A DNA stretch of 64,000 bases, taken from positions 4,416,001-4,480,000 of the forward strand of contig OZ240248.1 in assembly GCA_965198235.1 (NCBI GenBank). The letters are read 5' to 3'. Shown one piece after another: positions 1 to 2,173 of the stretch. A model generated the notes under the pieces. The model was not told where the DNA came from. It saw nothing but the letters and a program-made list of their open reading frames with translations, and ran no database searches. Every line of letters starts with the position of its first letter. Within the stretch, counting starts at the first letter, position 1. The stretch comes from Candidatus Poribacteria bacterium (GTDB lineage Bacteria > Poribacteria > WGA-4E > WGA-3G). The position numbers were made by a program, and so were the translations under genes.

Positions 1-419
1 TCGTTATTATTATGAACCCAACCTACGAGATATTCCATGAAGAGTATCACGTCGCTTACAAACAGTTTTACGATGAAGTCCTCGCCGAAACGACAGAACC
101 TTTTGAGATGCAACAGAAGTTTCAGGAGAAATACGCAAAGGACGCGTATTTAATCGATTGCTATCGGAATAAGTTCGCACACCACGGTTTTCATCCGTTT
201 ACCGTCTGGTATTGGGCGACATATCCGCTGAAATATCTCGCGAAGGTGATTCTCGTCGGTCCGAAGGAACCGAGAGTCGCGCAACAGCTCGGTGTTGATT
301 GGGCAAAAAACTTAGACGATGCTCTTGCAATGGCACGCGAAATCTCTGGGGAGGACGATGTCGTTGCCTTGACGATGCCGCCGTTTTTCTATGCAAATGT
401 TGGAGGCTCCAGTCAGTGA
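1..419 (+). CDS. 3' part of a lactate racemase (LarA/DUF2088)-like domain protein, truncated by the window edge
   Basis: C-terminal 'FAHHGFHPFTVWYW...VILVG...LG...A..LDDALAMA' resembles LarA-domain proteins; its stop codon TGA (417-419) lies inside the downstream element. Confidence 0.55.
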   Translation, partial: VIIMNPTYEIFHEEYHVAYKQFYDEVLAETTEPFEMQQKFQEKYAKDAYLIDCYRNKFAHHGFHPFTVWYWATYPLKYLAKVILVGPKEPRVAQQLGVDWAKNLDDALAMAREISGEDDVVALTMPPFFYANVGGSSQ

Positions 420-660
420 CCCAATCCTAAAGGATTGGGCTTGTCCAAGATGGCAGCCACGCCTATCACTTGGACGAGGGTAACTCATTGACTACCGTAA
501 TATATCGCAGTATCTCGGCGTGGCAGCCGAAACGATGTGTGTCAAACGGATATATCCTGTGGTCGGGTATATCCAAAGGATGCTCCCCAAGTCCCATTCC
601 TCTCGGATACTGTGATCGGGATGGGGAAACATATACCCGCATTGCGGAGTTTTACCTGTT
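412..660 (+). ncRNA. omegaRNA (HEARO-like) scaffold; 3' boundary uncertain, may extend to about 780
   Basis: Stems GTCAGTGA/TCATTGAC, CTTGTCCAAG/CTTGGACGAG and GGGTATAT/ATATACCC; possible pseudoknot TCCCC (584-588) with GGGGA (623-627). Confidence 0.7.
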
Positions 661-858
661 TTCCGAAAGACACCGTGTCAGGTCAAAGTAGCGGATAGTG
701 ACAGTATCGGTGAACCGAAGCAGCACATCGGACGGAAATGCCTACGTGTTTGTGGCGAAAAAACAACACGCCCCCACTTCGGGGAAAAATCCTAAATTAG
801 AAGGAGGCGGTGTTTCCTCCCCTGAATCAATTCAGGGGTTTCCACACCGAAGATTTTG
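412..858 (+). mobile_element. Non-autonomous IS200/IS605-superfamily (IscB/OMEGA-type) element carrying an omegaRNA/HEARO-like scaffold, no nuclease ORF
   Basis: Starts GTCAGTGA, then hairpin CCCAATCC-TAAA-GGATTGGG-CTTG (420-443); GTCAGTGA pairs with TCATTGAC (485-492); HEARO-like GGATGCTCCCCAAGTCC at 578-594; right-end hairpin CCCCTGAAT/ATTCAGGGG (819-838); followed by ATGA. Confidence 0.8.
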
Positions 859-1077
859 ATGATTAAAGATTCCCCCATCGTTGAAGATATCCGACGTATT
901 CGCAACAAGATTTCCGAGAAATTTGACCACGATATAGGTCGCTATATTGCCTACTTGCAGAGTGAGGCAGCCTCACGTCAAGCGAAGAAAGCTGCACAAC
1001 AGTCAAATAGTAGTGAAAATGGCCTCGCCAACACAGAAGACTACGATCAGAGGTCTAAGGAAACCAGGGTTAATTGA
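859..1077 (+). CDS. Small hypothetical protein, antitoxin-like (DSPIVEDIRRIR...FDHD)
   Basis: 72-aa ORF starting at the ATG right after the element; its original GGAGG RBS appears to sit on the other side of the insertion. Confidence 0.55.
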   Translation: MIKDSPIVEDIRRIRNKISEKFDHDIGRYIAYLQSEAASRQAKKAAQQSNSSENGLANTEDYDQRSKETRVN

Positions 1078-1114
1078 ACTTGCGAACCTATGAGCCCCAA
1101 AAAAGAGGAGTCTG

Positions 1115-2173
1115 ATGGAAGATACGGACTTTTTGATACCTACCAGCACTATCGGCAGTTACGCACCCCCGAGTTGGCTTTGCGTGACCTTAGAGGCAAT
1201 CGGACGCGGGGAACTCGGTGAAACCGACATTAACGAGACCTTCGACGATGCTGTTCGCACCGCCATCGCCGACCAAGAACGTGCTGGCGTTGACATCATC
1301 ACAGAGGGTGAGATGCGCCGACAAGACTTCGTGCTCGGTTTCTATGAACGGCTCACCGGGTTAGAGCAACTGCCTGCACCCAGAACACAGGGACCCGACG
1401 GACACGATCAACGCGGCAAATGGTTGCCTTCTGTTCCGCTCGCAGCTCCCGATGGTCTCGGTATCCTCGCAGAGTTTGAATTCGCGAAAAACGAGACGAC
1501 GAAACCGCTCAAGGTGACATGTCCCGGTCCGTTCACGCTCTCTGGACGTATTCAAACAGGTGGTATCTACAAGGAGCGACTTGAAGTTGCCTACGCCTGT
1601 GCGGAGATTATCAATACAGAACTCCGCCAACTCGTCGCCGCAGGCGCAGAATTCATACAGTTAGACGAACCCTCTTACGCCGTTTATCCTGACCGTCCTG
1701 AAGAGTTCGTCAAGCTTTTCAATCACACTGTTGAAGGTTTAGGGCGTAGCTCGCAAGCCCATATTGAACAGTCAGCAAAGATTGGACTGCATATCTGTTT
1801 CGGCAACTATCGCGGCAGAGCCGTCGGAAAACGTTCCTACCGTCCGCTCTTTCCCTATATTTTAGACGCAGATTTCGATCAACTCGCACTGGAATTCGCA
1901 AACCGAGAATTGGCAGAAATTGGATTATGGAGTGACTTCCCGAACGATAAAGAACTCGCCACAGGGCTCATTGATGTTAAAAACTACTATGTAGAGACAC
2001 CGGAGGATGTCGCAGCACTGCTCCGCGAAGCACTCAAGCACGTGCACCCTGAAAAACTCGCGATTACGCCGGATTGCGGCTTCAGCCAAACAGCGCGGTG
2101 GGCAGCTGCCGCCAAACTGAAAACGATGGTAGCCGGGACTGAAATTGTCCGCCGTGAACTCGCGGGATTTTAA
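1115..2173 (+). CDS. Cobalamin-independent methionine synthase II family protein (MetE C-terminal catalytic domain)
   Basis: IGSY, DQERAGVDIITEGEMRR, QLDEP, HICFGN, EFA and TPDCGF zinc-ligand motifs; RBS GAGGAG. Confidence 0.9.
   Translation: MEDTDFLIPTSTIGSYAPPSWLCVTLEAIGRGELGETDINETFDDAVRTAIADQERAGVDIITEGEMRRQDFVLGFYERLTGLEQLPAPRTQGPDGHDQRGKWLPSVPLAAPDGLGILAEFEFAKNETTKPLKVTCPGPFTLSGRIQTGGIYKERLEVAYACAEIINTELRQLVAAGAEFIQLDEPSYAVYPDRPEEFVKLFNHTVEGLGRSSQAHIEQSAKIGLHICFGNYRGRAVGKRSYRPLFPYILDADFDQLALEFANRELAEIGLWSDFPNDKELATGLIDVKNYYVETPEDVAALLREALKHVHPEKLAITPDCGFSQTARWAAAAKLKTMVAGTEIVRRELAGF

Follow-up and report, generated by a model that had tools for sequence, protein, structure and literature searches.

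A gene-less element with transposon ends, an IsrB-type omegaRNA scaffold and an additional RNA domain in a Candidatus Poribacteria genome

The stretch of DNA analysed here, referred to as the window, comprises 64,000 nucleotides of a Candidatus Poribacteria genome of 5.17 Mb (G000, positions C1:4416001-4480000), and coordinates given without a contig name are window positions. At 412-858 on the plus strand, between the end of a larA-like gene and a small open reading frame (ORF), lies an element of 447 nt that combines the ends of a transposon with the scaffold of an omegaRNA and contains no nuclease gene. This element is best understood as a non-autonomous, protein-less derivative of the IS200/IS605 transposons, a palindrome-associated transposable element (PATE) of the IsrB/ISC1 type, that would specify a complete omegaRNA, receive its guide from read-through transcription of the host gene and rely on an IsrB protein acting in trans to nick the empty allele. 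We give this reading a probability of about 0.72. The existence of the feature itself is far beyond chance, given that copies with the same two ends are found in unrelated flanks.

The 5' end of the element is the GTCA at 412. A perfect 8-bp hairpin follows close to it (420-439), the conserved core occupies 578-594 and a terminal hairpin (819-838) is nested within a longer helix (808-849), after which ATGA comes next at 859-862. According to the ORF list, no nuclease gene is encoded in 412-858 and the longest internal ORF measures 73 aa. In the same way, a six-frame search of the whole genome for the Pfam domain RRXRR gave eight matches at seven loci, none of which falls in 412-858. An earlier note on this DNA, hereafter the original prediction, had described an ORF-less omegaRNA element at these positions, and its features were indeed recovered there.

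The boundaries of the element can be read from its relatives. In-silico removal of 412-858 results in an upstream protein that ends with GGSND-stop and in an ATG, the one at 859, located 5 nt past a GGAGG. Among 40 relatives searched with window positions 1-1400, a contiguous empty junction was observed in five genomes of the same genus (G002, G008, G009, G014 and G018), in which the two flank blocks abut with zero or just the expected five bases between them. In these empty junctions the upstream proteins end with GGSND, GGPND or GESND, the stop codon runs into the beginning of the small ORF, whose ATG has GGAGG, or a sequence close to it, 5 nt ahead. A shift of either boundary by a single base destroys the match to the congeners' junction, so the limits and the junction that the original prediction had reconstructed proved correct to the base. 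Comparison with the empty sites of the five congeners also indicates that no target duplication accompanied the insertion, and a search with the element profile (nhmmer) found the element absent from all 19 orthologous loci fetched. In parallel, the alignment of the gene-less copies of G000 showed that their flanks turn unrelated exactly before GTCA (411|412) and after ATGA.

Further copies with the same ends, another expectation of the original prediction, were present both in the genome and in its relatives. Homologous copies with both ends alike and unrelated flanks amount to three full-length ones in the genome, 58 loci in species representatives and nine metagenome contigs. The three long gene-less copies of the genome were detected with nhmmer and comprise that of the window, C1:1070729-1071181 and C1:4757287-4757721; the other family members in the genome are six isrB-linked scaffolds and five short elements. 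In addition, an internal-deletion derivative (copy C, C1:2377106-2377458) keeps coding remnants of the isrB C-terminal part. Nineteen more long copies were fetched from congeners, and ATGA comes next in 20 of the resulting 22. An exact-pattern scan for the 3' domain described below, run on one genome per species, returned 77 loci, 58 of them real copies and all of these in Poribacteria records; the other 19, together with 16 of 25 pattern matches in metagenomes, were rejected as chance matches outside the family, including L178, a partial match in coding-like DNA. The sets of 58 and nine copies overlap the 19 fetched congener loci and are not independent of them. Long copies measure 434-607 nt, with a median of 460 nt, and all complete ones keep the order scaffold, 3' domain and terminus. 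No isrB gene was found within 1.5 kb of any of them, be it among the species representatives (0/58) or in the metagenomes (0/9). Excision and integration by TnpA are indicated only indirectly, by many copies at varied sites and by presence or absence differing among congeners.

Two observations concern the size of the copies. In three congener copies (L065, L106 and L112), 110-160 extra bases are located between the 3' domain and the terminus, bringing these elements to 575-607 nt, and this additional sequence looks like a nested insertion. The short gene-less elements measure about 185-235 nt (C1:3157699-3157919 on the minus strand, 3046388-3046608, 1012452-1012678, 1866635-1866869 and 4077018-4077201 on the minus strand) and retain 56-86 nt from the start of the scaffold (5' helix and hairpin), to which a brief unrelated middle and the common terminus are joined. 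They do not possess the omegaRNA core and therefore cannot be guide RNAs.

The omegaRNA scaffold of IsrB type extends over 412-655 on the plus strand and is defined by a match to the HEARO family, by homology to isrB-linked RNAs and by covariation of helices 1-12. At the Rfam gathering threshold no match was obtained anywhere in the window. In E-value mode, HEARO (RF02033) matched 412-655 over model positions 1-211 with 27.7 bits (E 9.6e-4; gathering score 83), a match that is below the gathering score yet spans the whole model. The HEARO covariance search proposed in the original prediction was thus successful as regards a full-model match, and unsuccessful as regards the gathering score. Like HEARO RNAs, the window RNA has a 5' helix, a hairpin with a TAAA-type loop, a conserved core and a terminal UUAC that align across the model; what separates it from them is the low score, which it shares with the isrB-linked copies at about 25 bits (25.4 bits for locus D). 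Even the top HEARO score of the genome, 68.4 bits upstream of its single iscB, remains below 83, and the model seems to be tuned to IscB-type RNAs. The window scaffold aligns with the approximately 205 nt that end at the isrB ATG in all six isrB loci of the genome, and the last 60 nt or so of the element align with the terminus of full-length isrB elements, where the isrB stop codon is situated in the hairpin loop. A hairpin at 548-574 is extra in the window scaffold and is lacking in the isrB-linked RNAs.

That nuclease genes with an RRXRR domain are encoded elsewhere had also been anticipated, and the seven loci of the genome bear this out. They comprise five open frames of 343-363 aa without HNH, one truncated frame of 173 aa and one of 621 aa with HNH. 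A resident isrB gene is located, for example, at C1:4954390-4955412 on the minus strand. The 341-aa protein of locus D has RRXRR as its sole Pfam domain, and its best solved relative is DtIsrB (8dmb, E 3e-32), the IscB structures being far behind. The VDPG, ED and H..D motifs, which we take to be the catalytic motifs of RuvC, are kept in the alignment of the two proteins. Judged from sequence, the cognate nuclease family is predicted to be the HNH-less IsrB (341-363 aa) rather than IscB, and the activity to be expected is therefore nicking and not double-strand cutting. Of the two nucleases that the original prediction had proposed to act in trans, IsrB is retained, the scaffold aligning with six of six isrB loci, and IscB is not. 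The single iscB (C1:1472438-1474587, minus strand) encodes the 621-aa protein with HNH, in which the RRXRR match is split in two around a large insert. At the level of the genus, an RRXRR gene was found in 52 of 61 genomes and the 3' domain in 32, with both present in 30 of those 32; these genomes are related to each other, and the co-occurrence is a description and not a test.

Downstream of the scaffold, the long gene-less form contains a second RNA domain of about 135 nt (658-791, plus strand), with helices at 661-737, 739-757 and 745-770, that was delimited by nhmmer and by covariation of helices 14-19. In the genome, nhmmer detects this 3' domain solely in the three long gene-less copies and not in the isrB-linked elements. 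The possibility that it represents a remnant of the isrB ORF was rejected on account of this distribution and of its covariation.

The conservation of the structure was assessed on an alignment (A1) of 20 of the 22 copies, which are 59-76% identical to the window copy; L065, whose right end is displaced by the nested insert, and L077, whose right end is missing, were left out. RNAalifold proposed 104 pairs, and compensatory changes were seen in 57. The structure that was counted had been edited, one long-range helix being removed and a helix at columns 375-380/395-400 added by eye. The helix removed (columns 225-228 with 403-406) was dropped because its changes are one-sided and because it competes with a likely core pseudoknot. 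Standard pairs occupy 94.4% of the cells, compared with 32-46% when the partners are slid by 1-3 columns, and 62 of the 104 pairs changed on both sides, compared with 21-29 for slid partners; the structure being derived from A1 itself, the slid control flatters it somewhat, and the double changes are still numerous. None of 500 shuffles attained any of the five observed measures. The window copy forms 101 of the 104 pairs and, folded alone, has a z-score of -3.4. Covariation spans the scaffold, the hairpin at 548-574 and the 3' domain, and helices 20-21 of the terminus covary as well.

The transposon terminus (801-858, plus strand) consists of a Shine-Dalgarno (SD)-like GGAGG at 803-807, the hairpin at 808-849 with its inner stem at 819-838 and a further 9 nt. 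It is common to isrB-bearing, tnpB-bearing and short gene-less elements, and a tnpB-only element of the genome likewise has ends alike to those of the family. The ATGA that follows (859-862, plus strand) is at the same time the TnpA target, the target-adjacent motif (TAM) of IsrB and, for the downstream ORF, the start codon together with the next base. It comes next in 54 of the 55 copies with a definable end, in agreement with the ATGA that had been claimed at the right end. The element has subterminal hairpins at both ends (420-439 and 808-849) and is devoid of terminal inverted repeats, as is characteristic of IS200/IS605 PATEs. One label needs to be corrected: the hairpin that the original prediction called the right-end hairpin belongs to the left end in the TnpA convention, since it is the TnpA right end that holds the omegaRNA scaffold, according to the part of the Meers preprint (10.1101/2023.03.14.532601) that deals with these ends. 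For the rest, the three outcomes that had been named as refuting that prediction, namely no HEARO match, no other copies and a differing junction in relatives, did not occur.

Six Y1 tnpA genes are present in the genome. An IS605 present in two 99%-identical copies of 1848 bp (C1:4380178-4382025 and C1:4791474-4793321) encodes a TnpA of 149 aa and a TnpB of 410 aa, and is followed by ATAA at each copy. Its subterminal hairpins match the 420-439 hairpin of the window at 19 of 20 positions, which suggests this IS605 as the best candidate source of the transposase. A comparison of the element profile with the six tnpA neighbourhoods gave weak hairpin matches alone (E 0.17-8).

The source of the guide is the flank of 20 nt at 392-411 (plus strand), which adjoins the 5' side of the scaffold. 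The genome contains no second match to these 20 nt at up to three mismatches, and the bases next to them at the occupied site are GTCA, which is not a TAM, so that the sole cognate target would be the empty allele. The 5' flanks of the other copies are unrelated to this one. The locus was present in four metatranscriptome runs (X1-X4, from one study and labelled sponge metagenome) and in four other runs. Every one of the RNA runs contained a contig running from the host gene through the guide into the scaffold (166-769, 383-771, 312-769 and 305-769) with 0-2 mismatches, this evidence being made of contigs without strand or ends, from one study whose libraries may contain DNA. The bridging contigs are consistent with read-through from the larA-like gene.

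The stop of the contigs at 769-771, at the 3' foot of helix 745-770, was considered as the 3' end of the RNA and dropped, because contigs break at repeats and a single study is concerned; in X1, a contig of another copy overlaps 744-774. Positions 771-833 have no contig cover at 95% likeness, which was not counted as a finding. Depths were 100, 22, 11.5 and 38 for the bridging contigs and 20, 4, 0 and about 6 downstream, and cannot rank expression. Over the core (578-638), the summed depth of short contigs in X1-X4 reached about 1000-2000, compared with 4-100 for neighbouring single-copy contigs; this exceeds what some ten copies per genome would give, contig depth being a poor measure, and several related strains are probably present in the libraries. 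A joint of 653 to 834 in X2 was discarded since it belongs to a different copy type. Finally, a promoter and terminator scan of 1-1200 revealed nothing on the plus strand, with counts not above those of shuffles, and is uninformative on where the RNA starts or stops.

These elements can be assembled into a scheme. A Y1 TnpA encoded elsewhere would insert the element, without duplication, immediately 5' of an ATGA that is here the start codon of the small ORF. Transcription out of the larA-like gene would then produce an RNA in which a guide of about 20 nt (392-411) is continued by the scaffold from 412 onwards, and one of the five intact IsrB nickases could load this RNA in trans. The loaded IsrB would recognise the element-free allele through the guide match and ATGA and nick its non-target strand, and recombination with an element-bearing copy would restore the element, leading to its retention or homing. 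The occupied allele would be spared because GTCA, and not NTGA, is next to the guide match. In this scheme we infer the strand and the ends of the RNA, its loading in trans, the nicking and the benefit for retention.

The placement of the family relative to genes is far from random. In G000, 20 family termini have an ATG next to them, and 12 of these ATGs open frames of at least 250 codons, compared with 8.6% of 40,000 random ATGA sites (binomial tail 1e-8); the terminus of the window opens a conserved ORF of 72 aa. In the species representatives, 34 of 53 frames are open for at least 100 codons or to the end of the flank, compared with 17.7% in the control (35 of 54 with L105, left out for its one-codon flank). 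Of 52 copies, 23 have an SD-like tetramer in the 20 nt that precede the left end, compared with 14% in controls. In addition, 44 of 54 copies have GGAG or GAGG directly at the 5' foot of their terminal hairpin, whose 3' foot is 8-10 nt from the ATG; in the window the spacer is 9 nt. With such a layout the SD-like motif could come close enough to the start codon to work, a hairpin-bridged ribosome-binding site being known from gene 38 of phage T4. Part of the start-codon bias is accounted for by avoidance of gene interiors: among 6,653 ATGA sites outside genes, 15.7% are at called starts, a rough null from a crude gene call in which the first possible start of each ORF was taken. Moreover, full-length elements have the SD-like motif too, within the part of isrB that codes for the C terminus, and it may therefore be merely inherited.

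Three other explanations of the element have to be weighed. The whole could be an inert relic, an isrB element shortened by deletion long ago that looks structured only on account of recent common ancestry among its copies and whose RNA is idle. In favour of a relic are the identity of only about 75% to the closest relative, the lack of a nuclease gene, the occurrence in the same genome of copy C, which is clearly a deletion product, and the two genomes that contain a copy and no RRXRR gene. Such a history nevertheless fits poorly with the 62 compensatory pairs of 104 and the 94% pairing across copies that are 59-76% identical to that of the window, far above the slid controls, and with a 3' domain that covaries and has no detectable similarity to isrB loci; in some genomes, many near-identical copies suggest recent activity. 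We consider a relic improbable. Less likely still, and very improbable, is that the RNA partners the single IscB of the genome and directs double-strand cleavage, as the IscB-type heading of the original prediction implies. This idea draws on the presence of one iscB with RRXRR and HNH, next to the RNA with the best HEARO score of the genome, yet both a DNA search and an nhmmer profile search matched the scaffold to the isrB-linked RNAs and not to the iscB-linked one, and the common terminus overlaps isrB stop codons.

The third explanation concerns tolerance by the host, and can coexist with a guide RNA used by IsrB. The 3' domain may form, along with the SD-like motif and the terminal hairpin, a portable translation-initiation module that would keep the downstream gene expressed after it has been split from its own ribosome-binding site, the guide role being secondary or lost. 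The excess of start codons in G000 (12/20) and in the species representatives (34/53) speaks for such a module, as do the SD-like motifs before the left end and at the foot of the hairpin. These same data can be explained otherwise in part, given that the motif may come from isrB coding sequence, that selection against insertions within genes contributes to the bias (the 15.7% null) and that TnpA needs a terminal hairpin anyway; conservation of the omegaRNA core is left unexplained. We consider this explanation possible, though less likely than not.

Several observations weigh against the proposal of a mobile, IsrB-guiding element. The nearest copy is about 75-76% identical to that of the window, and the insertion may therefore be old and no longer mobile. 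None of the Y1 tnpA genes is beside an isrB element, and the 819-838 hairpin of the window is unlike the IS605 hairpins. The HEARO score is far below the Rfam threshold. By its extra hairpin and its 3' domain the scaffold differs from every isrB-linked omegaRNA of the genome, so that compatibility with the resident IsrB is only predicted. Two genomes have a long-form copy and no RRXRR match (G015, 93% complete, and G065, 94% complete in 3 contigs). The RNA contigs have the limits described above. Finally, no demonstration of retention through nicking was found in the cited literature, and IsrB nicks only.

The basic kind of element is already published, as gene-less omegaRNA derivatives of IS200/IS605 with an N|ATGA target and an NTGA TAM, and no concept is changed by the present one. 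In the sections of Kapitonov 2016 (PMC4810608) that concern them, ISC1 elements are described with a GTCA 5' terminus and insertion at N|ATGA, their protein-less derivatives are named PATEs, and shared ends are reported for ISC and IS605B pairs. The corresponding sections of Hirano 2022 (PMC9581776) report for IsrB an omegaRNA of about 300 nt with a 20-nt 5' guide; the protein nicks the non-target strand, its TAM is NTGA and DtIsrB was active on ATGA. As in the ISC1/IsrB elements of these accounts, the window element starts with GTCA, is inserted at N|ATGA without duplication and has hairpins at both ends; its scaffold begins at the element end, its guide would come from the flank and its TAM fits NTGA. 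It differs from them by having no isrB, by the extra hairpin at 548-574 and by the 3' domain that takes the place of the gene. According to extracts of the Meers preprint, the TnpA right end gives rise to the scaffold, guide and transcription start lie outside the element, and PATEs often encode omegaRNAs used in trans; stand-alone omegaRNAs are credited to Altae-Tran 2021 in an excerpt of Yu and She (PMC11610941). Like those PATEs and stand-alone omegaRNAs, as far as these extracts describe them, the window element is protein-less, keeps transposon ends and a guide RNA, and would obtain its nuclease from another element. The PATEs of the Meers extracts share ends with tnpB or iscB elements, whereas the present family is of the IsrB type and, unlike them, has an added covarying RNA domain, was never seen with a gene (0/58 and 0/9) and is located at start codons.

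The contribution of this sponge-symbiont lineage of Poribacteria is a form devoid of the nuclease gene, with a covarying 3' RNA domain, and a strong start-codon bias with an SD-like motif at the hairpin foot. A literature search found no description of a 3' RNA domain and start-codon placement with such a motif, and the phrase "start codon" is absent from PMC4810608, PMC13565253 and PMC9755519. One may go further, tentatively, and see in the long gene-less form of Poribacteria guide-RNA parasites that make up a lineage in their own right and are not decayed isrB elements. The nuclease gene would have been replaced by the RNA domain of about 135 nt, and the form would free-ride on the IsrB of others and be adapted to a position between the host ribosome-binding site and ATG(A), with its own SD motif at the hairpin base, 8-10 nt from the ATG. 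We regard this as a doubtful extension. If true, the host gene would stay translated while host transcription supplies the guide. The locus is in any case a clean natural example in which the guide, scaffold, TAM, empty site and nuclease genes elsewhere that the transposon-retention model calls for are all readable. It suits two questions, whether IsrB uses the guide RNA of a gene-less element and whether nicking is sufficient for retention. How such elements spread in a gene-dense symbiont genome without silencing genes is also suggested by the 3' domain and by a position at start codons with an SD-like motif of their own.

The element is flanked upstream by the 3' end of the larA-like gene (1-419, plus strand), a 519-aa ORF with a Pfam Lar_N match on the full ORF (E 3e-33). 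Its stop codon (417-419) is now inside the element, and the protein ends with GGSSQ compared with GGSND in relatives. The downstream ORF of 72 aa (859-1077, plus strand; ORF list) is conserved in relatives and has no Pfam match. The insertion moved its ribosome-binding site 447 nt upstream.

At the site orthologous to 411|859 in three congeners (L047:1029-1508 of G013, L043 of G012 and L052 of G023), two have a PIN-like gene of 159 aa between the larA-like gene and the small ORF and the third has an 84-nt remnant of it. The Pfam PIN match (E 4e-4) is below the cut-off, and the protein ends with ...PND-stop, overlapping the ATG of the small ORF. The PIN-like gene and the small ORF may constitute a module resembling toxin-antitoxin pairs, from which the first gene had already been lost by deletion when the element arrived. 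Further downstream, just after a MetE-like gene (1115-2173), there are 2.1 repeats of a 51-nt unit, 90% identical (2199-2304).

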